A stretch of 63,951 nt of DNA, filler included, from an uncultured bacterium (GTDB taxonomy: Bacteria > DAOPZR01): assembly GCA_964637655.1 (NCBI GenBank). It is 4 parts of 4 records of this genome, joined end to end, with 100 filler letters (N's around TTAATTAATTAA, not from the genome) between each part and the next. Parts side by side here need not be neighbours in the genome. Positions count along the whole stretch, not along the records: positions 52,346 to 63,951 come from CAZWUZ010000106.1; 3 more parts are not named here. One strand, written 5' to 3'. The notes beneath the pieces were generated by a model. That model made no database searches and was not told the DNA's origin. It worked only from the letters and a program-made list of their open reading frames with translations. How positions within the stretch are numbered: the first letter of the stretch is position 1; the number at the start of each line of letters is the position of its first letter. A program made the translations under genes and the position numbers. Shown here one piece after another: positions 52,246-63,951 of the stretch.

Positions 52246-52345
52246 NNNNNNNNNNNNNNNNNNNNNNNNNNNNNNNNNNNNNNNNNNNNTTAATTAATTA
52301 ANNNNNNNNNNNNNNNNNNNNNNNNNNNNNNNNNNNNNNNNNNNN
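52246..52345. other. Artificial contig linker
   Basis: N-TTAATTAATTAA-N. Confidence 0.97.
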
Positions 52346-53478
52346 AGCAGGCGGCCGGGGGGCAATGGGTAGATGCGGCGATGCCGGCGGCGCTCTACCG
52401 CGGCACGGTGCCGCAGGTGCGCACAAAGACGTTTTTCGTCGGGCAGTCGGCGCTCGGCAACGGGGTGCAGGCAGCGGCGCTGACCGGCGGCGGGCTGCAG
52501 CTGAAGCTCGACTGCCCGGTGGCGGACGACCTGAAGGCGGTCGGCGCGTTCAATGTCCGCTCGACCGGGGCGGCGGTGTTCGCGGTGAACGACGTGTATA
52601 TCCAGTACCTGCTGGCAGGGCAGACGCTGCAGGCGGGCCGTATCAAGGTGCCGTTCGGGCGCGAGCAGGCGGTGCGTCCGACGGTCGGGCGGGAGGAGGT
52701 GTTCATCAGCGCCTACGCGCAGCCGGCGCGCGGCGCCCTGCACAACGTCTATGACATCGGGCTGCAGCTGGCGGGCAGACTCCCCGTCGACCAGTTCTCC
52801 TACCGGCTGTTCCTCGGCAACGGCGGCATCAGCACGGTGGCGGACAGCAGCGCGATGGCGCGCAACAGCCAGGCCTCGCCGGATATCAACGATGCCAAGC
52901 AGGTGGGCGGCGTGCTGACCTGGAAACCGCTGGCCGGCGCGTTCATCGAAGGCGCGTACTTCGCGGGTGATTACACCAGCACCAATGCCGGGGTGGGCCG
53001 CGCGCGGTTCACCGCCTACGACGTCAATGCCGGCTACGATATTGCCGGCGCGCTGCTGGTTTCGGGCGAGTATGCCACCACGCGCCACGACCGGATGCTG
53101 CTGGAGTCAGACGCGGGTGCCATCGGTGTCCCGGCCGCGCGCGCCCTGACCGACGCCCGGGTCAACGAATACGTGCTGAAGGCGGTCTGGCACGGGACGC
53201 CGGACTGGCAGGCAGGACTGCGCTACAGCGTCATCGACCCGAAATCGTTCGCGGCGGAAGTAGCGGCGCAGTTCGCGCAGGAGCGCAAACTGTCGCTGGC
53301 GGTGGCCTATCTCTTCGCGGGTGGCGCGCAGCTCAAGGCGGAATACAGCCGCCTGATCACCGATCTCGACTATTATGCCGGCTATGACGCGGCGGCGCTG
53401 GCGGGGCAGTACCGGCTGAACCCGGAGTCGGACCCGGACGACGACATATTCGCCCTGCAACTCGCGCTGCAGTTTTGA
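52346..53478 (+). CDS. Outer-membrane porin (OprO/OprP-like anion porin), 5' truncated
   Basis: DVYIQY...AGRIKVPFGRE, amphipathic beta strands, C-terminal LALQF. Confidence 0.7.
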
Positions 53479-53488
53479 GGAGGGAAAC

Positions 53489-54316
53489 ATGCACTGCCGG
53501 CGCTGGCCGATGCTGCTGGTCATGATGCTGTGCTGCGGCTGCGGTCAGCCGGAGAACACCGCGGTGCGGCCGGCAGAACCGGCGGCAGTTCTGCAGGCGG
53601 GGATGGTGGCCGGCCTGCGGCTGCCGCTGGAGAAACTGCTTGACCGGTATCAGCAGCAGACCGGAATGCGGGTACTCCCGACGTTTGCGGACAGGACCCA
53701 GCTGGCTCAGCAGCTTGCGGCCGGTGCCCCGTATGACCTGCTGATTGCGGAGACGGGCAGCATCGGCGCACTGGCGGGAGCGGGCCTGCTCGATGCCGCC
53801 AGCATGCGGCCGCTGGTCGAAGGCGTGCTGGTGGTGATGACCGCTGCTGATGGCGTGCCGCCACCGGCCGACCTGCGCGAACTGGCGCAGCCGCGGTATG
53901 CGCGTGTCGCACTGCCCGACCCCGAACAGACCATCTACGGCAGCGCCGCGCGCACCGCCTGCACACGGTTGGGGCTCTGGCAGCAGCTGCAGCCGCGCAT
54001 AGTGCTCACGCGCAATGCGGCGCAGGCGGCGGTGTACGCGGAACAAGGCGAAGTCGCGGCGGCATTCGTGCCGCTGGCCGGCGCGCTCGACCGTCGGGCA
54101 CCGTACTATGCGGTGCCGGAAGAACTCTATCCGCCGATTATGCACGCCATGGCGACCGCGGCAGCGACAGAGCGACAGGCCGAGGCGACAGCATTCCTGG
54201 CGTATCTGCTCACCCCGGAGTGCCGGACGGTGTGGGAAAAATTCGGTTTCAGGATTCCGCCAGCGGCGGGCGGAACAGCACCTGTTGTGCCACGGGGGGA
54301 CAGGAGGAGCGAATGA
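53489..54316 (+). CDS. modA: ModA-like substrate-binding lipoprotein (divergent copy)
   Basis: LAQQLAAGAPYDL, ALPDP...YG.AA; the oxyanion-binding motifs are altered. Confidence 0.75.
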   Translation: MHCRRWPMLLVMMLCCGCGQPENTAVRPAEPAAVLQAGMVAGLRLPLEKLLDRYQQQTGMRVLPTFADRTQLAQQLAAGAPYDLLIAETGSIGALAGAGLLDAASMRPLVEGVLVVMTAADGVPPPADLRELAQPRYARVALPDPEQTIYGSAARTACTRLGLWQQLQPRIVLTRNAAQAAVYAEQGEVAAAFVPLAGALDRRAPYYAVPEELYPPIMHAMATAAATERQAEATAFLAYLLTPECRTVWEKFGFRIPPAAGGTAPVVPRGDRRSE

Positions 54317-55020
54317 AGCAGGGGCTGAAACTGGTGACGGCCGTGCCGCTGGCGGCAGCGCGCCAGCAGCTGCTCCCCCTGGTCCGGCAGGCCGCCCACG
54401 GGGCCTGCTATGCCATTACCCAGCATGGCCGGCCCGAAGCGGTGCTGGTGAGCGCCGACCGTTTCTTCGCCCCGTACGCCGCCCTGCACGGGGTGGCGGC
54501 GGTGGTGCTGGCGGCGACGGGCGGGAGGCGGGGCGGTGTGCCTGACCCGGCAGTGACGGCCCGGTTGTGCCGGCGGCTGCTGCAGGCGGGACTCGCGCCG
54601 GTGGTGGTGGTGGCGGATGCGGGTGACCGCCGGCTGACGGCCGCGCTGGCAGCGACCAGGGTGGCGGTAACGTTTTGCGGCAGCGGCAACCCGGGATTCT
54701 CCTCATCGCTGAAACGGGGGGTGCGCTTTATCGCGCCGTGGGGCGAGGCGCTGCTGGTGGCCTTTGCCTCGCTGCCGGACGTGCGCGTGGCAACGCTGCG
54801 GAAGATGCTCGCCGCCTGGCACAGGGAGCGGAGGGGAATCGTGCAACCGGAGTACCGGGGACGGCGCGGGCACCCGGTGCTGCTCGCTGCCGGCTATCAG
54901 CGGGAACTGCTGGCCCTCGACCCGCGCCGGGGGATGCAGACCTTCATGCGCCGGCATCAGGCGGATATCCGCACGGTGGCGGTCACCGACGCGGGAATAC
55001 TGAAAAGGAAAGACCGATGA
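54313..55020 (+). CDS. Phd/YefM-like DNA-binding domain fused to a degenerate MocA/MobA-like nucleotidyltransferase
   Basis: AAARQQLLPLVRQA...YAITQHGRPEAVLVS, then VAAVVLAA...GFSSSLKRG...PEYRGRRGHPVL; ATGA overlaps at both ends. Confidence 0.75.
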   Translation: MKQGLKLVTAVPLAAARQQLLPLVRQAAHGACYAITQHGRPEAVLVSADRFFAPYAALHGVAAVVLAATGGRRGGVPDPAVTARLCRRLLQAGLAPVVVVADAGDRRLTAALAATRVAVTFCGSGNPGFSSSLKRGVRFIAPWGEALLVAFASLPDVRVATLRKMLAAWHRERRGIVQPEYRGRRGHPVLLAAGYQRELLALDPRRGMQTFMRRHQADIRTVAVTDAGILKRKDR

Positions 55021-55784
55021 ACATGCAGAAGCGGGCGTTCCTGCTGTGCGCCGCGGCAATGCTGCTGACGGGATGCGGAGAGCAGACAACCCTGACCATT
55101 CACCCGCTTACGGTGGCGGCGGCGGCGAACATCCAGCCGGTCATCCGGCAGGCCGCCGCGCAGTTCAGACAGGGTGACGGGCGCGGACTCGTTTACACGG
55201 TGAAGACCACCTTCGGGTCGACGCAGCAGCTGGCGCAGCAGGTGGCGGCAGGCGCCCCGGTCGACCTCTTCATTGCCGCCGACACGGTGACCGTGGCGCA
55301 ACTGGCGGCATCCGGGCACATCCTGCCGCACAGCGTGCAGGTGTACGCATACGGCAGCGTCGTGCTCTGGCGGCAGGACACGACGGTGACGGGACTGGCA
55401 GCGCCTGGCGGTGAACCCATAGAGCGTATCGCCATCGCCAATCCCGACCTCTCCCCCTACGGTGCCGCGGCGCGCACGGCGCTGCAGCAGGCAAACCTGT
55501 GGACGCGCCTGCAGCCGAAACTGGTGCTCGGCGCGAACGTGGCGCAGGTGGCGACCTGGGCACAACGGGGCGAGGCGGATGTCGCCTTCCTGCCGCTTTC
55601 GCTGGCGCGACAGCACGGGCTGGCAGCTGAGCCGGTACCCGGGGCGCCGCGCCTGGCGCAGGCACTGGGCATCGTCGCGCACCGCGCACCGGCGCGCCTG
55701 CAGGCGGCGGCGGCTTTTGCCGCGTACCTGCGCGGCCCGGCGGGCGCAGCACTGCTGCAGGAGGCAGGGTACGAACTGCCGTGA
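55017..55784 (+). CDS. modA: Molybdate ABC substrate-binding protein
   Basis: Lipobox LTGC; VAAAAN, FGST..LAQQ...GAP.DLFIAAD, IAIANP..SPYG.AA, GANVAQ. Confidence 0.9.
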   Translation: MNMQKRAFLLCAAAMLLTGCGEQTTLTIHPLTVAAAANIQPVIRQAAAQFRQGDGRGLVYTVKTTFGSTQQLAQQVAAGAPVDLFIAADTVTVAQLAASGHILPHSVQVYAYGSVVLWRQDTTVTGLAAPGGEPIERIAIANPDLSPYGAAARTALQQANLWTRLQPKLVLGANVAQVATWAQRGEADVAFLPLSLARQHGLAAEPVPGAPRLAQALGIVAHRAPARLQAAAAFAAYLRGPAGAALLQEAGYELP

Positions 55785-56416
55785 GTGACGCGCTGCTGGT
55801 TTCGCTGCGGGTAACGCTGCTCGCCGCCCCCGCCATCGCGCTGCTCGGGATTATCGGCGCGGTGCTGCTGGCACACTGGCGCAGCCCGTGGCGCAACCTG
55901 GTGGAACTCGCCTGCATACTTCCCATCGTCCTGCCGCCGACGGTTACCGGCTATTACCTGCTCAACCTGCTCGGCCGCCACGCGCTCGGGCAGTTCGTCC
56001 AGCTGCTGTTCACGCCGGTCGGCGCGGCCATTGCCGCAACCGTGATGGGGCTGCCGCTGATGGTGATTGCCGGCAAGGCCGCCATCGCCGGGGTTGATGC
56101 GCGGCTGGAAGCGGCGGCGCGCACGCTCGGCGCATCGGAGTGGCGGGTGCTCTGCGACATCACCCTGCCGCTGGCCAGGCGCGGGCTGGTGGCGGGATTC
56201 CTGCTTGCCTGCGCGCGCGCCTTCGGCGAATTCGGCGCCACGCTGATGGTGGCCGGGTCGCAGCCGGGGAGCACGCGGACGCTCTCGATTGCGCTCTATG
56301 ACGCGGTGCAACTGGGCGATGACGCGACGGCGCTGGCCATCGTGGCACTGCTTACCGGCTGTACGGTGGCGGTACTCGCGCTCACCCGCTGGCTGGAACG
56401 GGGAGGCGCGCGATGA
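55781..56416 (+). CDS. modB: Molybdate ABC permease
   Basis: LPIVLPPTVTGYYLL, EAAARTLGA, ARAFGEFGATLM.AG. Confidence 0.95.
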   Translation: MSDALLVSLRVTLLAAPAIALLGIIGAVLLAHWRSPWRNLVELACILPIVLPPTVTGYYLLNLLGRHALGQFVQLLFTPVGAAIAATVMGLPLMVIAGKAAIAGVDARLEAAARTLGASEWRVLCDITLPLARRGLVAGFLLACARAFGEFGATLMVAGSQPGSTRTLSIALYDAVQLGDDATALAIVALLTGCTVAVLALTRWLERGGAR

Positions 56417-57501
56417 ACGGCCTGACGGCAGAGTTCGTGCGCCCGCTGCGCCATTTTGCGCTCGACCTGTCGCTTACCCACACGCAGGGGATACTGGCGC
56501 TCTTCGGCGCGTCAGGGGCAGGCAAGACCCAGATGCTGGAATGCCTTGCCGGGCTGGCCATGCCGGCCACCGGCAGCATCACGCTCGACCACCGGGTCTT
56601 TTTCCGCCGTGCCACGGGCAGCCCGACGGTAAAACTGCCGCCGCGGCGGCGGGGCATCGGGTATGTCGTGCAGGACGGCGCGCTCTTTCCGCACCTGACG
56701 CTGGCGGCCAATGTCGCCTACGGCATGCGCGGCGAAGCGGACGCCGCGGCGCGCGCCCGCACGCTGCTCGCGGACATGGGCATCGGCGAACTGGCGGAGC
56801 GCTACCCGCGCGAGGTATCGGGCGGGCAGCAGCGGCGGGCGGCCATCGCCCGCGCGCTAGCCATCCGCCCGCGCCTGCTGCTCCTGGACGAGCCGTTCGT
56901 GCACCTCGACCGGCAGGTACGCGCCCGGCTGATGCGCGACTTGACGGAGACGGTGCGCTGTCATGGCCTGCTGGCAGTGCTGGTGACCCACGACCGTGAG
57001 GAACTCGCACACTGCGCCGACACCATCGCGCTCATCGAGCGCGGACGGCTCATCCAGCAGGGCACGCGTGACGAGGTGCTCGACCGCCCGGCAAGCGCGG
57101 CGGCGGCGCGGTTGCTGGGGGAGAGCAACCTGCTCGACGGGGCGGGCGCAGGAACGGACGGGAAATGGCAGATGGTGCGTACCGGCGGCCTGACGTGGCG
57201 GCTGCCCGCGGCGGCGGTGCCGGTGACGGGTGCGGTGACGCTCGGGGTGCGCAGCAGCGCCCTGAAGATCATCCGCCCGGACGCACCGGTACCGGAGGAA
57301 CTGGCGCGCAATTGCCAGCGCGGGACGCTGGCTGCCATCGATGCCCGCCCGGATACGGTGCTCTTCACCATGCGTTTTGCCGACGGCAGCGAACTGACGG
57401 GAGCGACGCTCCCCGATGTCTTTGCCCGCAGTGGCGCCCGCGCGGGCGAGCAGCGCGATGTCGCCGTTGTTCCTGACGGGCTGCGCGTCTACGACAGCTG
57501 A
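56413..57501 (+). CDS. modC: Molybdate ABC ATP-binding protein
   Basis: GASGAGKT, LFPHL, SGGQQRR, LLLDEPF. Confidence 0.88.
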   Translation: MNGLTAEFVRPLRHFALDLSLTHTQGILALFGASGAGKTQMLECLAGLAMPATGSITLDHRVFFRRATGSPTVKLPPRRRGIGYVVQDGALFPHLTLAANVAYGMRGEADAAARARTLLADMGIGELAERYPREVSGGQQRRAAIARALAIRPRLLLLDEPFVHLDRQVRARLMRDLTETVRCHGLLAVLVTHDREELAHCADTIALIERGRLIQQGTRDEVLDRPASAAAARLLGESNLLDGAGAGTDGKWQMVRTGGLTWRLPAAAVPVTGAVTLGVRSSALKIIRPDAPVPEELARNCQRGTLAAIDARPDTVLFTMRFADGSELTGATLPDVFARSGARAGEQRDVAVVPDGLRVYDS

Positions 57502-59690
57502 CCGGCGGGGGTGCCCTCGCGGCCGATGATAACCTCCTGCAGGCGCGTGGCGAGATGTGAATGGCGGTGGGTGCTGTAGCGCAGCGCCGCCTTGACCACG
57601 TCATAGGGCATGATCATCACCAGTTTCTCCTGCGCGCGCGTCATCGCGGTGTAGAAGAGGTTGCGGTTGAGCAGGAAGTAGCACCCCGCGCGTGTGGCAA
57701 GGAAAATGACCGCGCGGTTCTCGCTCCCCTGCGCCTTGTGCACGGTCATCGCGTAATTGAGCACGATGCTCTCCAGCGCCGGTTCGGGCACCCGCACGGT
57801 TTTCCCGTAGAACTCGATGTCCATCGCGCGCGTCGTCGCGTCCTGCCCGAGCACATAGCCGATATCACCGTTGAACAGGTCGAGGGTGTAGTCGTTGCGC
57901 CGCTGCATCACCTTGTCGCCGCGGCGGAACTCCCGGCCCAGCGCGACAAAACTGTTGTCCGCGGCGCGCGGGTTGAGCAGGTCGCGCAGACGGATATTGA
58001 GCGATGACACCGAGATGTCGCCGCCCCCCTTGTTGAGCGGGGTGAGCACATGGATGTCGCGGATGGGGTCGTACCCCTCCGCGCGCAGCGTGGCCACGGC
58101 TTCCTCCAGCGCGCGCAGCATCTGCTGCGGGTCGGCCGTGTCGACGAAGCGGAAATCGGGTGTGTCACGCACGGGAAAGGGTTTTTCGAGGTTGATCAGC
58201 CCGGCATTGCGCAGGATGGTCGAGTTGCGCGCCTGCCGGAACACCGCGGTCAGCACCACCTGCGGGATGGCATAGGCGGAAGCGAGCGCGGTCAGCACGT
58301 TGCCCGCCTCGACTGACGGAAGCTGGTAGGGGTCGCCGATGAGCACGAGGCGCACGTCCGGGGCCAGCCCGTCGAGGATGGCGCGCAGCAGCAGCAGGTC
58401 GAGCATCGATGCCTCATCGATGATGAGGCAGCCCGTCACGAGCGGGTGCTCCGCGTCGACGCGGAAACCGCGGTGCGGCACGGCGCGGAACAGGCGGTGT
58501 ACCGTCTGCGCGGGGACGCCGGTCAGCGACTGCAGTTTCCACGCCGCCTTGCCCGTCGGGGCCGCCACCTTGAACTCGCTGCCGAGGCGCTGCAGCACGG
58601 CGAACAGGCCGCGGCAGAGAGTCGACTTGCCCGTGCCGGCGGCACCGGTGATGATGCATACCGGCTGGCAGACGGCGGTGCGGATGGCGGTTTTCTGCTC
58701 GTCGCTGAAAGCGAGGTGCAGGTCGCGCGCGCAGGCATCAATGAGCAGGTCGAGTGACGGCAGGTCGCGCGGGGGCCGGGCGAGCCGCGCGGCGAGCAGC
58801 TGCGCCACCGCCTGCTCCGCTTCGTGGTAGGCGGGGAGGTAGACGCGGTCCTGCTCGATGACTACCTGTTCCGCGGCGAGTACCTGCGCCTCACACCACG
58901 CGCGCGGCAGTCCGAGCAGGTCGCTGATGCCCTTCACCAGTTCGTTGAGGTAGAGGAAACTGTGCCCGGTCTTGGCCATGGTCGCGGTGATGACGAACCT
59001 GACGGCGGCAGCCGCGCGCTCGTCCGCCAGCGGGTCGAGTCCCGCCTGCTGCGCGATGGCGTCCGCCGTGCGGAACCCGATCCCCTTGAAATCGCTGATG
59101 AGACGGTAAGGATGCTGGCGCACCTGCTGCGCCGCGTTGTCGCCGTATTTACGGTAGATGCGCCCCGCGCGCAGCGGGGAGAAGCCGAGCAGGATGAGGT
59201 CGCGCAGGGAGGTATCGGCTCCGCGCACGCTGCTGACGATGCGTTCGCGTACCGCCGGCGTGATCCCTTCGATTTCCGCCAGGCGGTGGCTCTCTTCGCT
59301 GATGACGCGCAGCGCGTCGGCCCCGAAAGCGCTGACGATGCGGGTGGCCAGCGTTTCGCCCACCCCGTCGATGGCGGCGATCAGGTAACGTGCCACCGCT
59401 TCGCGCGTGTACGGGGTTTCCGGGGTGAACTCGTCAACCTCGAGACAGGCGCCGAAGCGCGGATGCTGCGTGCGGGTGCCGCGGGCGCGGATGCAATCAC
59501 GCGGCTGCACCTGCGGCAGGTAGCCGGCCAGGGTGTGTTCCGTGCCGTCCGCCGCGGTGAGCGTGACCACTTTCCAGCCGGTGTCGGGGTTGGCGAAAAT
59601 GACGGCGCCAACGGTGCCCGCCACCTCGGCGCCGCGCGCCTCGCGCTCGGTGACGAAGTCGAAGACGAGCTGCCTACTGCGCCGGGACAC
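57489..59690 (-). CDS. recD2: RecD2-like ATP-dependent SF1B DNA helicase
   Basis: GTG after GAGGAGG; HP.FG, HhH GIGFRTAD, GAAGTGKST, IIDEASM, GD..QLPSV, YAMTVHKAQGSE, YTAMTRA. Confidence 0.92.
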   Translation of the reverse strand: MSRRSRQLVFDFVTEREARGAEVAGTVGAVIFANPDTGWKVVTLTAADGTEHTLAGYLPQVQPRDCIRARGTRTQHPRFGACLEVDEFTPETPYTREAVARYLIAAIDGVGETLATRIVSAFGADALRVISEESHRLAEIEGITPAVRERIVSSVRGADTSLRDLILLGFSPLRAGRIYRKYGDNAAQQVRQHPYRLISDFKGIGFRTADAIAQQAGLDPLADERAAAAVRFVITATMAKTGHSFLYLNELVKGISDLLGLPRAWCEAQVLAAEQVVIEQDRVYLPAYHEAEQAVAQLLAARLARPPRDLPSLDLLIDACARDLHLAFSDEQKTAIRTAVCQPVCIITGAAGTGKSTLCRGLFAVLQRLGSEFKVAAPTGKAAWKLQSLTGVPAQTVHRLFRAVPHRGFRVDAEHPLVTGCLIIDEASMLDLLLLRAILDGLAPDVRLVLIGDPYQLPSVEAGNVLTALASAYAIPQVVLTAVFRQARNSTILRNAGLINLEKPFPVRDTPDFRFVDTADPQQMLRALEEAVATLRAEGYDPIRDIHVLTPLNKGGGDISVSSLNIRLRDLLNPRAADNSFVALGREFRRGDKVMQRRNDYTLDLFNGDIGYVLGQDATTRAMDIEFYGKTVRVPEPALESIVLNYAMTVHKAQGSENRAVIFLATRAGCYFLLNRNLFYTAMTRAQEKLVMIMPYDVVKAALRYSTHRHSHLATRLQEVIIGREGTPAGQLS

Positions 59691-60459
59691 GGTCAACCTC
59701 CTCGCGCGGCGGCTGGCAGGGGCGGAAGGCGGGGCAGAAACGGCAGTGCGGGCCGGGGGCGCGCGCGAATTCCCGGTCGTCACGGATGCGCTGCGCCAGC
59801 GTCGCGAGCGCGGCGAACCAGTCCTCGCGGTATGAAGTGCTGCAGGTCGCGTGGGTCTGGTCGCGCAGGTAGAGCAGGGTGAAGCGGAATTCGCGGTAGC
59901 GACGGCGGAAGAGATGATAGGCGGCGACGACATATGCCTGCGCCTGCAGGTCGCCGGCCACCTCGTCATCCGTCAGCTTGTTCCGGCCCGACTTGTAATC
60001 GATGATGTGCAGCAGCGGGGGCTGACCCGGCGGCGTCAGCAGGTCGATGCGGTCGACGCGCCCGGTGAGCGTGATGCTCCCGTCCGGGAGCAGCGGCACG
60101 CGAAACGGTTTCTCCAGGGCATAGACCTGCTGCGGATTGACCGCCCGTGCGGCAAAGCGGGAGAGGAGCAGGTCGGCCTCGGCGTATGAGCTTGCCCCGT
60201 CAGCAGGGAGGGAACCGTCGCGCAGGTCGCGGGCGATGGCGTAGAGGCGCACGCCGTCGCGCTCCTGACGGGAGCGCACCAGGTGGCGCAGGTAGCGGTC
60301 GAGCGCCTCGTGCAGGTAAAGGCCGAACGCGGTCTCGGCGGTCGGTCCGTCGCGCAGGTTCTCGCCGTAGGCGTAGTAGTAGCGGCGCGCGCAGCGGCAG
60401 TAGAGTTTCAGCTTCGACGGGGAAACGCTCGTCAGCGGGACGGGGCGCAGGTCGCTCAT
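59674..60459 (-). CDS. PD-(D/E)xK (RecB-family) nuclease with Fe-S cysteines
   Basis: SPSKL..Y.RCARRY, GRVDRID, IIDYKSG, Q...Y, HCRFCPAFRPC. Confidence 0.88.
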   Translation of the reverse strand: MSDLRPVPLTSVSPSKLKLYCRCARRYYYAYGENLRDGPTAETAFGLYLHEALDRYLRHLVRSRQERDGVRLYAIARDLRDGSLPADGASSYAEADLLLSRFAARAVNPQQVYALEKPFRVPLLPDGSITLTGRVDRIDLLTPPGQPPLLHIIDYKSGRNKLTDDEVAGDLQAQAYVVAAYHLFRRRYREFRFTLLYLRDQTHATCSTSYREDWFAALATLAQRIRDDREFARAPGPHCRFCPAFRPCQPPREEVDRVPAQ

Positions 60460-60493
60460 GACAGCGCGAGCATACACCACGCTGCCGCCGGCG

Positions 60494-63400
60494 TCAATCG
60501 ATGACGGCGATTTTCCGCGTGGTGGTTTCGCCCGAGGCGGTGTCGCGGATGACAGCCAGATAGACGCCGCTGGCGACCCGCTGCCCGCGCGCATTGCCCA
60601 GGTCCCAGCGCCAGCCGTACGAGCCGAGCCCGCCGGCGGTGCTGAGCAGTTCCGACGCGACGAGGTCGCCGGCCAGCGTGTAGAGCTTCAGTTCGAAGGT
60701 GCGGTTGACCGGCAGCAGGAACTTGACGCCGTAATTGCCGTGGGCGGCATGGCGGTCGCTGCGCCACGGGTTGGGGTAGACGATGATGTCGTTCATGCCG
60801 CTGACGGTGAGCGCCTGCGCCCCGAGGCGGTAGACCGAGAAATGGCGGACCTCGGCCCAGGCCAGCCCGGCGGCCTCGTCGACCGTGGTGGGGAGCACCA
60901 GCCATTCACCGGTGATGCCGTCGCTGTCCTCGTCACGCTCGTCGAGCAGCAGGATGACCAGCGCGCCGCGTTCATGCCAGGCCAGTCCCGGGGGAATGGC
61001 GAAACGCACGCGGGCGGGGAGGAGCAGGCCGGTGTCGTGCAGCGCCCCGTCACTCAGCCGCCGCACATGCAGTTCGGCAGTCAGTTCGCCGTCGCGGTCA
61101 ACCGGAAGGAATTGCACGCCGGGGGCACCGCCGGCCGCACGGCCATTGGCGGCGGTATAGGTGACGGTGTCCGTGGCGCCGGCGGCCAGGGTAAAGCCGA
61201 CGTCAGTGTCGAAGGCGCCGGCGGGCACGCTGATGCTGATGCCGGGTACGGACGGGTTGCTGACCGTGCCGCTGCCGCTGTCCGCGGCGCTGATGAACGT
61301 CAGCACGAAGGTTTCGGGGAACGTCGCCTTGAGGTTGGCGCAGGAGAGCACGGCGGCACCCGGGGCACGGCTGCGGACAAAGGCGCGGAGGATGCCGTCA
61401 GCGCCCGTCACGGTGCTGACATAGTCGATGGTGTCACCGCGGTCGGTCTGCAGTTTTACCGGCACCCCGGCCATCGGCCCGCCCGGGTTGGCGAGGTACG
61501 CCGTCACCTCGATGCCGTCGCTGCCGTCCGCCAGCGCGGTGGTGCGCGCGATGGTCAGCGACGACAGGTCAGCCACCGGGCTGCGGTCGCGGAAGAGCGC
61601 GTAGCGCGAGAAGTGCGTGGTGAAGAAGGTGATGGTGTTGGCGTCCGGGTCGACCACTCCGCCGTAATCGTCCCAGGTGCCTGCCGCGTCGTTCCACCAG
61701 AAGACCTTGAGCGAGGTCTCGTCCGCGGCGCCATCGGTGAGCCCCGCGGCGGCCAGGTCGGCGGCATCGTAGTGGAGGATGACCATGAGGGGGGTGGACG
61801 ACTGGAACCCTTCGGGCCAGAACTCGCGCGCCACGCCCGTGGCCACCATGGTGTCGTAGGCGGTGCCGGGATCGACGAGGCCGGATGACGAGGTGCGGAT
61901 GACCGTGCCCGCGGCGAGTTCGTCACCGGCGCTGACCACCGCCACGGTCACCCCGTTGTCGATGAGGATGCCGCCGCTGCTGCTGATGTATGCCTCCCCC
62001 GCGAGGTCGTAGGTGCGGATGGTGGCGCGGTTCCCCACCCAGTGGAGGGAGGCGGGCTGCAGCGTCCCCGCGTCGGGCCAGGAGAGCGACAGCTCGTTGG
62101 CCGCGGCCCCGAGCATGGTCAGTTCCGCGTAGGTGTCGTAGGTTGAGCCCGCCCCGTCATTATTGAGAAAATCGAGGTTGCCGACATAGCGCATGACGAT
62201 GTCAAAGTTGGTCGCAGCAAGGGCGCCATTGGGATCGGTCAGAAACGCGTTGAGGTCGAACGACGCGGTGCGGTCGACCGCGTAGGAGATAATCTTCCCG
62301 TCGCGGCTCCATTGCGGGCTGCAGTAGACGGTATCCGCATGGTCGTCGGCCTGCCCGAAGTCCTTGTCCGCGCCCGTCGCCACCGTATCGGTGATTGTCT
62401 GCGGACTGATGCGCACGAGGTGGGCGCCCCACGCCTCGGCGATGGCGCCCGCGGCGATATAGTTCGCGGCGTTCTTCAGCACCCAGATTTCCGACTGGAA
62501 GATGTTGCGGGTGGCGTCGCCGTCAGAAATCTCGCGGAAGTCGTAGCGGGTCATCGCCAGGTGTTTTCCGTCGGGCGACCAGACCGGTTCCGCCCAGTAG
62601 TAGGAGCGGTACGAGGTGCGGTCAGCGCGCGGGTTGCGCAAGCTGCCCGGGGCCTGCTGCCCGCTGCTGTAGCCGCGGATGATGCGTGCGGTGTAGGGGT
62701 TGTCCGGCACGCGGTCGACATAGTCGACCTCCATGGCGTATTTGCCCGACCAGAGAACAAGGTCGCCGTTCTCACTGCAGGCGGCATTGAGCGTGTAGCC
62801 GCCGGCGAGCGCGATGCCGCTGTCGGACACGTCGGGGGTCCAGGAATTGAGATAGCCCGCCTCGGGGGAGCGGTTGACCCAGGCGGTATTGGTCTTCCAC
62901 GTGTCGCTGCCGTCGGCTGCGACCACCATGATCCCCCAGAAGGGTGAGGGATAGCCGGTGACATAGCCGCCGAAAATGACGTCGTCGTCGCCGTCCTGGT
63001 CGAAGTCGGCGATGTTGACCCGCCCGAAGGGGCAGGGATTCATGGTGCGCGAACTGACCATGACCGAGTCGCCGGTGTAGCGATCGATGACGTAGACGCG
63101 GCGGTCGGTGCAGGGTGCTCCCCTGACCGTGCCGAAATCACCCTCCACCAGTCCCAGCGACAGGCCGTCATTGCTCCAGTTGAGCCCGGTGATGGTCCAG
63201 GTGTCGGCAGTGACCGTTTGCGCATAAAACTCGTCGATGCCGGCAATCGAGGAGATGTAGGTGTCGCCGTCAAACGCGCTCCAGCCGCCGACCGCGAAGA
63301 ATCGCACCAGCGCGGTGTCGGTGAGCGCCACGGTGTCCTCGGCCGTGCAATAGCCGCTGCAGGTGACGTCGTTGACCGTGGTCGAAGTCAGGGTTGCGGT

Positions 63401-63951
63401 GTACTGCCCGCTGCCGTCCGTGTAGCCGGTGGCATTCTGCACTGTGGCGCTGCCTGCCCCGACGATGATGGTGACGCGGTGGGCGGGGACGGGCTTGCGG
63501 TCGGCGGTGAGCAGGGTCACGGTGACCAGCGCCGTGTCGCTGCCGTCGGCCTGTGCCCCGGTCGCCTCCAGCGTGCTGCGCGCCAGCGCGTTGCTGTTGA
63601 CATGGCCCGGGGTGCCGTTGGGGATGCCCGATACGGCCCAGTTGGCGTCGTCGGTGCCGAGTTCAGACGGGCAGTCCTTTTCCACCGAGCAACTGTCGCC
63701 ATCGCCGCCCCAGGCGGGCTTATACTCACTGGTGTCGTGAGTCGCCCCGGTTGAATCGGAGACCGCGATGGTGCCGCCGGTATTGGCGAGAGCGAAAGCG
63801 GCCCAGCGCACCACCGGGACCCCGGCGAGGTCGTAGCCAAGCGCCGGCTCATACAGGCCGCTGGTGGTGGTGTCACGGGCGATGACCACGTAGCCGTACG
63901 GGCCGACCTGCGCGTAGCCGGCCGGGATGGTATACCAGCCCTCGCCGTTCT
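60494..63951 (-). CDS. Large secreted/surface protein (lamin-tail, invasin Ig-like and TolB-like segments; T9SS/FlgD-Ig C-terminal domain), 5' end beyond the window
   Basis: NW.....P.GTPG..NS; ADGSD...VTVT...TD..G; PVWSPDG; VYPNP...IYT..G.LV...WD..N..G..VASGVY...TRKIAVI. Confidence 0.75.
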   Translation of the reverse strand, partial: NGEGWYTIPAGYAQVGPYGYVVIARDTTTSGLYEPALGYDLAGVPVVRWAAFALANTGGTIAVSDSTGATHDTSEYKPAWGGDGDSCSVEKDCPSELGTDDANWAVSGIPNGTPGHVNSNALARSTLEATGAQADGSDTALVTVTLLTADRKPVPAHRVTIIVGAGSATVQNATGYTDGSGQYTATLTSTTVNDVTCSGYCTAEDTVALTDTALVRFFAVGGWSAFDGDTYISSIAGIDEFYAQTVTADTWTITGLNWSNDGLSLGLVEGDFGTVRGAPCTDRRVYVIDRYTGDSVMVSSRTMNPCPFGRVNIADFDQDGDDDVIFGGYVTGYPSPFWGIMVVAADGSDTWKTNTAWVNRSPEAGYLNSWTPDVSDSGIALAGGYTLNAACSENGDLVLWSGKYAMEVDYVDRVPDNPYTARIIRGYSSGQQAPGSLRNPRADRTSYRSYYWAEPVWSPDGKHLAMTRYDFREISDGDATRNIFQSEIWVLKNAANYIAAGAIAEAWGAHLVRISPQTITDTVATGADKDFGQADDHADTVYCSPQWSRDGKIISYAVDRTASFDLNAFLTDPNGALAATNFDIVMRYVGNLDFLNNDGAGSTYDTYAELTMLGAAANELSLSWPDAGTLQPASLHWVGNRATIRTYDLAGEAYISSSGGILIDNGVTVAVVSAGDELAAGTVIRTSSSGLVDPGTAYDTMVATGVAREFWPEGFQSSTPLMVILHYDAADLAAAGLTDGAADETSLKVFWWNDAAGTWDDYGGVVDPDANTITFFTTHFSRYALFRDRSPVADLSSLTIARTTALADGSDGIEVTAYLANPGGPMAGVPVKLQTDRGDTIDYVSTVTGADGILRAFVRSRAPGAAVLSCANLKATFPETFVLTFISAADSGSGTVSNPSVPGISISVPAGAFDTDVGFTLAAGATDTVTYTAANGRAAGGAPGVQFLPVDRDGELTAELHVRRLSDGALHDTGLLLPARVRFAIPPGLAWHERGALVILLLDERDEDSDGITGEWLVLPTTVDEAAGLAWAEVRHFSVYRLGAQALTVSGMNDIIVYPNPWRSDRHAAHGNYGVKFLLPVNRTFELKLYTLAGDLVASELLSTAGGLGSYGWRWDLGNARGQRVASGVYLAVIRDTASGETTTRKIAVID

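Follow-up and report, generated by a model that had tools for sequence, protein, structure and literature searches.

What is a protein that joins an antitoxin-type domain to the remains of a molybdenum-cofactor enzyme doing inside an operon for molybdate uptake? Known control of molybdate uptake runs through ModE, which senses molybdate, or through the molybdenum cofactor (Moco) riboswitch, which responds to the cofactor; in many lineages neither is present in full. The question arises from a gene at positions 54313..55020, whose product we call P0001, in a stretch of DNA of 63,951 nucleotides (the window) from an uncultured bacterium of the GTDB lineage DAOPZR01 (assembly GCA_964637655.1). 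The best explanation we can offer, with a probability of roughly 0.5, is that P0001 is an autoregulated one-component repressor of the mod operon, and that its MocA-derived pseudoenzyme domain senses a ligand related to the molybdenum cofactor. The window consists of contigs linked end to end through runs of N that surround a TTAATTAATTAA linker (for example at 52246-52345), and open reading frames (ORFs) that cross such joins are artefacts. The fusion gene lies on contig C106 (window positions 52346..63951) of the window's own genome, G000, a 4.0 Mb assembly of 485 contigs that is 90.6% complete. The gene and its parts are these:

54313..55020, + strand: fusion gene for P0001, 235 residues, a Phd/YefM-type N-terminal domain followed by a degenerate, C-terminally truncated MocA-like domain (ORF map, Pfam, NCBIfam, AlphaFold2 (AF2))
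54334..54468, + strand: Phd/YefM-type domain, residues about 8-52, of beta-alpha-alpha-beta-beta order (Pfam, NCBIfam, PDB profile matches, secondary structure, column counts, predicted dimer interface)
54493..55017, + strand: MocA-like pseudoenzyme domain with the MobA-like NTP transferase fold, residues about 61-235 (PF12804, Foldseek, PDB profiles)
54508..54537, + strand: degenerate glycine-rich loop LAATGGRRGG, residues 66-75, without Lys (alignments, column counts)
54766..54777, + strand: A-S-L-P in place of G-D-x-P, residues 152-155 (alignments, column counts)
54859..54882, + strand: retained GRRGHPVL motif, residues 183-190 (alignments, column counts)

The initial annotation called the N-terminus of P0001 Phd-like, and the profile evidence bears this out. 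The NCBIfam model TIGR01552 (phd_fam) scores 33.1 bits, above its cut-off of 20.8. Pfam PF02604 (PhdYeFM_antitox) matches residues 10-50 with an E-value of 6.5e-7 and 29.5 bits, slightly under its cut-off of 29.8, and is over the cut-off in the fusion proteins P0003, P0050, P0052 and P0182. When a profile of the fusion family is compared with the PDB, positions 6-54 match Phd-type antitoxins, namely RelB (9g12), P1 Phd (3hs2/3hry), RelJ (3cto/3oei) and Rv2865 (3g5o); a profile built from nine N-termini alone finds RelB 9g12 at 3.2e-6, VapB46, P1 Phd and RelJ at 0.017-0.05, and other matches up to 0.07. Residues R17, T36 and H38-G39-R40-P41-E42 are conserved in the fusion family. Position 17 is Arg or Lys in nine of nine fusions, and it aligns with an Arg of P1 Phd, RelJ, VapB46 and RelB. 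R17 may correspond to R10 of E. coli YefM. A review describes the basic residues R10 and R31 of YefM as essential for DNA binding (PMC4803016). The likeness to antitoxins is confined to the N-terminal part: P0001 matches only positions 3-44 of the 74 in the PF02604 profile, the toxin-binding region of antitoxins is absent, and from about residue 60 on the chain is the MocA-like domain and not a toxin-binding tail.

Modelling is in line with this assignment. The AF2 monomer of P0001 is predicted with a mean predicted local distance difference test (pLDDT) score of 91.3 and a predicted template modelling score of 0.85, and shows the beta-alpha-alpha-beta-beta N-terminal domain followed by an alpha/beta domain. 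As a homodimer P0001 scores 0.73, against 0.01 for the best of three controls; of 30 proteins whose structures were solved as pairs of one chain, 20 reached the mark used here, as did 1 of 23 solved as single chains. Agreement in contacts between the dimer runs is at least 96%, with a partner pLDDT of at least 85, and the predicted interface comprises residues 4-52 together with 109-121 and 135-141 of the enzyme-like domain. The model thus predicts a Phd-type homodimer.

The second domain is a MocA-like fold that lacks several conserved features of MocA enzymes. PF12804 (NTP_transf_3) matches residues 81-216 with an E-value of 1.6e-17, covering profile positions 26-158 of 160. In the comparison of the family profile with the PDB, positions 57-225 match the MocA/MobA-related entries 3d5n (9.3e-22) and 2we9 (1.4e-17). 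Foldseek ranks MocA/MobA-related entries best for the modelled domain, all with probability 1.0: 3d5n with an E-value of 2.5e-11 and a template modelling (TM) score, normalised on the target, of 0.81, and 2we9, 2yes and 2wee with 0.72; MobA (1h4d) is also matched with probability 1.0. The MocA model TIGR03310 gives P0001 75.7 bits, far below its cut-off of 186.45, and gives the fusions from two other genomes, G389 and G402, 59.5 and 64.3 bits. We defined the motifs by alignment with canonical MocAs, including that of G000 itself, P0308, which is encoded separately on contig C120 and has all motifs intact.

In MobA and MocA, the Lys of the N-terminal loop and the Asp of GDxP, a metal ligand, are needed for nucleotidyl transfer, and the DxDTxxDY region is part of the molybdopterin site proposed from MobA mutagenesis. 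Where canonical MocAs read G/V-D-x-P, P0001 reads A-S-L-P, and column counts show Ser or Thr for the Asp in nine of nine fusions (P0308 has Asp). The nucleotide-loop Lys is likewise missing from all nine. P0001 ends just before the DxDTxxDY site; all nine fusions stop 3-10 residues past the segment V-x-D-x-G-(I/V)-L, before that site. The G-x-S-S-L and GxxGHPVL segments are kept. The picture drawn by the initial annotation, of a MocA-like fold that keeps GHPV while GDxP and the terminal DxDT motif are gone, is therefore confirmed, and only its account of the glycine-rich loop needs amending. LAAGxSxRMGxxK is lost in part: its Lys, its Ser and the Gly at the fourth position have gone and the following segment is shorter, but L66-A67-A68 and G70-G71-R72-R73 survive as LAATGGRRGG. 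Other positions have become fixed in the fusions: all nine have F129, K134, R138 and R205, in place of the M, Q, A and P of P0308. The newly fixed basic residues K134, R138 and R205 could equally suit an oxyanion ligand.

Might P0001 nonetheless be an active, non-canonical nucleotidyltransferase, a MocA variant that uses its Phd-type domain to dimerise? The surviving LAA..GGRR and GRRGHPVL segments and the confidently predicted fold would allow it. Set against them are the absence from all nine fusions of the Lys and of the metal-binding Asp, whose catalytic roles are those given above, the deletion of the C-terminal motif, and a TIGR03310 score of 75.7 bits against a cut-off of 186.45. Since both residues are missing throughout and a canonical, intact MocA is encoded elsewhere in G000, we consider cytidylyltransferase activity quite improbable. 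The initial annotation had treated such activity, with no DNA binding, as grounds for abandoning its proposal, and on these data an active enzyme is unlikely.

The genes around the fusion place it within a transporter operon. In the window, these are:

52346..53478, + strand: 5'-truncated outer-membrane porin-like gene (frame open to the contig start; about 47 N-terminal residues missing)
53489..54316, + strand: modA paralogue 1, molybdate-binding lipoprotein-like (TIGR01256, 113.8 bits against a cut-off of 62.5)
55017..55784, + strand: modA paralogue 2 (TIGR01256, 131.7 bits)
55781..56416, + strand: modB-like ABC permease (PF00528)
56413..57501, + strand: modC-like ABC ATPase, last gene of the operon (PF00005)

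The order in G000 is thus porin-like gene, modA, fusion, modA, modB, modC. The ATG of the fusion overlaps the stop codon of the upstream modA as ATGA (54313-54316), and its own stop overlaps the ATG of the downstream modA in the same way (55017-55020), so that translational coupling inside the mod operon, as first proposed, holds on both sides. Overlaps of 4 nt also join modB and modC, 10 nt separate the porin-like gene from the first modA, and in the ORF map a convergent helicase gene after modC closes the operon. Gene context is known for four loci, in G000, G001, G389 and G402, with G+C contents of 69.0, 66.9, 43.2 and 67.2%; the four genomes represent two unrelated minor lineages. The fusion lies inside a modA-modB-modC operon in all four. 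In G001 the order is fusion, ModA with a LysM domain, ModB, ModC, and the divergent gene upstream is thiD-like, a label assigned by eye and thus presumptive. In G389 the fusion is followed by a 399-residue outer-membrane-like protein, ModA (TIGR01256, 75.9 bits, cut-off 62.5) and proteins resembling ModB and ModC/WtpC; G402 has the same order, and its 444-residue outer-membrane protein is 52% identical to that of G389. In three of the four loci (G001, G389 and G402) the fusion comes first in the operon, which is where an autorepressor usually stands. No toxin-like gene adjoins the fusion in any of the four, where the neighbours are porin or outer-membrane genes, mod genes or unrelated upstream genes; in the window they are the porin-like gene, the two modA genes, modB and modC. 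Both the lack of a toxin partner and the linkage of the PhdYeFM_antitox/NTP_transf_3 architecture to modABC thus extend from the window, where the initial annotation had them, to every locus with known context.

The same operon raises the possibility that P0001 does not bind DNA. It might instead be a carrier or chaperone for the molybdenum cofactor or molybdopterin, or a regulator of ModBC through protein-protein contacts, with the Phd domain acting as a dimerisation module only. The dead MocA domain would then hold the cofactor or dock onto partner proteins. In MocA and MobA, the C-terminal half mediates contacts with target proteins. Retention and conservation of the MocA-like fold, translational coupling to transporter genes, and a predicted dimer that uses the Phd domain would all be accommodated by such a role. 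It accounts less well for the conservation of Arg/Lys17 and HGRPE, which lie in the DNA-facing part of Phd-type domains, in nine of nine fusions, and the first-gene position in three of four operons and the promoter dyads described below fit a repressor better. We regard this alternative as unlikely, though far from negligible.

Candidate operators can be pointed to in the genomes where the fusion heads its operon. G389 and G402, although 24 G+C points apart, share a near-identical stretch that begins at a -35-like box and reaches the start codon, with TTGAC[A/G] and TATTA[T/A] set 17 nt apart. Because it contains in-frame stops, this stretch is not coding. The 17-nt spacer holds the dyad ATTATGT[A/T]CATATTA, whose 10-bp palindrome is perfect in G389 and carries one mismatch in G402. 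Only 8 nt in G389 and 6 nt in G402 lie between the -10 box and the ATG, so the mRNA may be leaderless. According to one report, YefM binds at its own promoter to palindromes that have TGTACA as their core and overlap the -10 box (PMC1802561). The candidate promoter of the G001 operon, TGGACA-17-TATGCT, has a 10-nt inverted repeat over its -10 box and start site. Searching for the G389/G402 dyad gave no match in the window; with two mismatches allowed, G000 yields matches, one of them in the promoter of an ordinary yefM-like gene, which serves as a control and is no mod site.

Several further observations concern these promoters and antitoxin genes. In G389, two tandem 17-nt repeats (L028:5748-5781, 94% identical) abut the -35-like box of the operon promoter, and each holds a CTGGA-N5-TCCAG dyad; G402 is without them. 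When the G001-type inverted repeat was sought elsewhere in G000 and G001, two G000 sites turned up besides the G001 promoter, both intragenic, and we attribute them to chance. On contig C100 of G000 (L046:4600-4660), an ordinary Phd/YefM-type antitoxin gene follows two TGTACA boxes spaced 12 bp centre to centre, as is classical for YefM operators.

An enzyme domain that has degenerated, in a metagenome-assembled genome broken into 485 contigs, could also be a decaying remnant or a chimera of assembly, with no function. The distribution of the fusion speaks against this. A word-indexed search gave 46 matches, three of them with both Pfam domains: P0001, P0002 (82% identity) and P0003 (61%). An exhaustive search of 1.84 billion representatives gave 5189 matches, and among the best 150 of these P0003, P0050, P0052, P0053 and P0182 match from first to last residues and P0051 in two stretches. 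PF02604 and PF12804 occur together in all six of the proteins scanned (P0002, P0050, P0051, P0052, P0053 and P0182); a family profile search found both domains in 6 of the 120 proteins listed. In total we count nine fusion proteins of the window type, at 33-82% identity to P0001, all with intact frames and shared invariant residues. Full-length fusions are encoded in G000 and in its only family-mate, G001 (2 of 61 genomes); G389 is the third such genome (3 of 401, counting G000 and G001), and of five genomes of its phylum two, G389 and G402, have the fusion. The other sampled genomes have no rank below domain in common with G000, which implies that the two host lineages are small and isolated. 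Four DNA runs of one wastewater study contain contigs that cover 54188-54593 with zero differences, spanning both the modA/fusion junction and the junction between the Phd and MocA-like domains, although as independent support they are weak, since the runs may be the genome's source samples. With nine intact frames, an occurrence in four genomes of two lineages and a confident fold, the fusion is neither an assembly artefact nor a singleton. It is not unique to this assembly, as the initial annotation would have needed it not to be, and we give the idea of a functionless remnant hardly any credence.

Other searches at the margin of the family gave little. One scan of a genome collection returned only a weak MocA-like match in an Aquabacterium genome. 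Of two matches in G110, the one checked is a canonical MocA and the other has one internal TAG. The Protein Atlas contained generic MocA-like clusters only, and no cluster of 50 or more members with the Phd–MocA-like architecture.

The ancestry of the MocA-like domain was examined with a tree on its aligned columns, comprising 80 rows, of which 18 are fusion-type proteins (P0310 not among them) and 62 are canonical MocAs taken from the head of the exhaustive-search list. Eight window-type fusions form one clade on a long branch, with a Shimodaira-Hasegawa-like approximate likelihood ratio test (SH-aLRT) value of 100. A second and larger family (P0200-P0239 and P0086, about 256-281 residues) joins an unannotated N-terminal domain of some 75 residues to a truncated, Asp-less MocA-like domain, with GNRP or GSRP for GDQP; two of its members are named Dehalococcoidia by NCBI. 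Its N-terminal domain has the order beta-alpha-alpha-beta-beta-beta in an AF2 model (m6b779f75cf08). We suspect a RelE/ParE-like fold for this domain, but Pfam and a PDB profile search find nothing and only the order of secondary structures fits. Nested within this clade (SH-aLRT 100), apart from the window clade, is a second Phd plus MocA-like pair, P0182 and P0199, whose MocA-like part appears close to those of P0200 and P0201, on short branches. The nesting implies that antitoxin-type, and possibly toxin-type, domains appear to have been swapped on one MocA-like scaffold. A further link between MocA and a DNA-binding domain is P0271 (311 residues), in which an intact-looking MocA domain is followed by a C-terminal HTH_1 (PF00126) segment resembling the N-terminal domain of ModE.

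It could be argued from this second clade, in which a truncated Asp-less MocA-like domain is joined to Phd (P0182, P0199) or to a suspected RelE/ParE-like domain, that the MocA-like domain is simply a partner of toxin-antitoxin-derived domains in a toxin-antitoxin-like or selfish module with no specific role in molybdenum metabolism. We judge this highly improbable for P0001. The window clade is separate from the second clade, its members sit in mod operons at all four loci with no toxin-like neighbour, G000 encodes no protein of the second type, and the RelE/ParE label is without a Pfam or PDB-profile match.

How might such a repressor work? The N-terminal Phd/YefM-type domain would dimerise and bind a dyad operator overlapping the operon promoter, as Phd and YefM do. 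The toxin-binding tail of the antitoxin would have been replaced by the covalently attached MocA-derived domain, which would no longer carry out nucleotidyl transfer while keeping the fold and part of the substrate cleft. This domain would serve as the effector module: binding of molybdenum-molybdopterin (Mo-MPT), molybdopterin cytosine dinucleotide (MCD), Moco or a cytidine nucleotide would alter the affinity of the Phd dimer for DNA, and the dead enzyme would thereby take over the role of co-repressor that the toxin plays in a toxin-antitoxin module. As an outcome, modABC, for molybdate or tungstate uptake, would be feedback-repressed when cofactor is plentiful. The ligand most readily guessed is a substrate or product of MocA (Mo-MPT, MCD or CTP). 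Within this scheme, that P0001 binds DNA, that it represses and does not activate, and which ligand it senses are all our inference. A more specific version, in which P0001 is a protein sensor of the molybdenum cofactor or its precursor (Mo-MPT/MCD), with cofactor occupancy setting operator affinity, and the first of its kind, is a tentative proposal that we hold with some doubt.

A number of observations weigh against an autoregulated repressor. The PF02604 match is slightly under cut-off in P0001, P0002, P0051 and P0053, and the G389 protein gave no TIGR01552 match at E <= 0.001. The dimer prediction may reflect memory in the model, because Phd/YefM dimers have already been solved. In the window operon the fusion is the third gene, not the first, and the promoter lies off the contig, so that nothing can be said of the promoter of this copy. 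The candidate operators differ between the two lineages; the likeness of the G389 and G402 promoters is that of two genomes of one family, and AT-rich G389 shows as many control matches as real dyad matches. Mo-MPT binding cannot be assumed, because the C-terminal DxDTxxDY is missing. The family is tiny, about nine sequences among billions, which limits the reach of the finding.

The last point of this kind concerns other regulators. The Moco riboswitch (RF01055) was found neither in the window nor in L018, the stretch carrying the G001 operon, nor anywhere in G000 or G001. No Mop domain was found in G000 or G001, and the fusion protein matches neither of the ModE families TIGR00637 and TIGR00638. 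All four fusion genomes, on the other hand, encode a short ModE-N-like winged-helix gene, at 55-68 bits against a cut-off of 98.5, and these short proteins could be the real mod regulators. For this reason the regulation cannot be called ModE-independent, as the initial annotation had it. The G000 copy (L021:1432-1797, - strand, on contig C249, 121 residues) lies directly upstream of genes that, read by eye, we take to be yqeB-like and yqeC-like, with a role in selenium-dependent molybdenum hydroxylase maturation.

Other members of these operons deserve brief mention. The two modA paralogues that flank the fusion in the window are only 33% identical to each other, and may differ in oxyanion preference, for example molybdate versus tungstate. 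The ModA of the G001 operon (L018:10580-11596, predicted start) carries an N-terminal, peptidoglycan-binding LysM domain at residues 37-83 (E-value 2.4e-5). Pfam and NCBIfam assign the window porin-like gene to no family; it is one of five copies that G000 has of an unannotated outer-membrane family (the window, C27, C333 and two on C21), and one distant homologue carries PF07642. By BLAST it is unrelated to the outer-membrane genes of G389 and G402, which are of a different family. A search of G000 with a full-length homologue, P0311, returned only the truncated copy and the four paralogues, so the 5' end of the operon was not recovered, and the contigs of the four DNA runs gave no extension beyond the start of C106. 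Among the runs listed for the stretch, none is of RNA.

If P0001 is indeed such a cofactor-sensing repressor, it would represent a third route by which molybdate uptake is tuned, with cofactor status read through a recycled biosynthetic enzyme domain, and a protein counterpart of the Moco riboswitch. It would show that the circuit regulating a toxin-antitoxin module can be rewired to sense a metabolite: an antitoxin would have had its DNA-binding half domesticated by exchange of the toxin-binding tail for a metabolite-binding domain. This makes for a testable model, in which the toxin-dependent control of Phd-type repressors (conditional cooperativity) has been converted to control by a ligand. 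It would also offer a handle on trace-metal management in poorly known candidate phyla. The hypothesis is cheap to test, given a small protein, short promoters and a defined set of candidate ligands.

How, then, does the fusion compare with known systems? Like the type II antitoxins of the Phd/YefM family (P1 Phd, E. coli YefM, M. tuberculosis RelJ), it shows the sequence signature of their N-terminal dimeric DNA-binding fold, a predicted dimerisation through that domain and, in three of four loci, a position at the head of its operon; TGTACA-type dyads in the promoters of two fusion loci (G389 and G402) recall yefM-yoeB. Unlike them, it has no disordered toxin-binding tail and no adjacent toxin gene (Doc, YoeB or RelE/ParE); its tail is a folded, enzyme-derived domain of 175 residues, and the operon it heads encodes a transporter. 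With MocA, the CTP:molybdopterin cytidylyltransferase, and with MobA it shares the fold and the retained GxxGHPVL and G-x-S-S-L segments, whereas it is without the loop Lys, the GDxP Asp and DxDTxxDY, scores below the family cut-off and occupies a long, separate branch of the tree. ModE does the job proposed for the fusion, in which a protein encoded next to the molybdate transporter controls it by feedback, but consists of a winged-helix N-terminal domain and two molybdate-binding Mop domains, to which both domains of the fusion are unrelated. The Moco riboswitch RF01055 follows the logic proposed here, sensing cofactor rather than metal and shutting down mod and moa genes, and is an RNA element where P0001 is a protein. 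Our literature searches turned up no paper on a DNA-binding domain of the Phd fold fused to a MocA-like sensor. Joining a DNA-binding domain to a dead enzyme that acts as sensor is a known design, exemplified by the Nudix-related NrtR and by GntR/MocR proteins with their aminotransferase-like domain. In those regulators, as proposed here, a catalysis-dead enzyme fold is reused as an effector pocket for the pathway's own metabolite, and both of their building blocks differ from those of the fusion. What would be new is the pairing of Phd with a MocA-like domain and the sensing of the molybdenum cofactor by a protein; the principle of the design is a well-known one.

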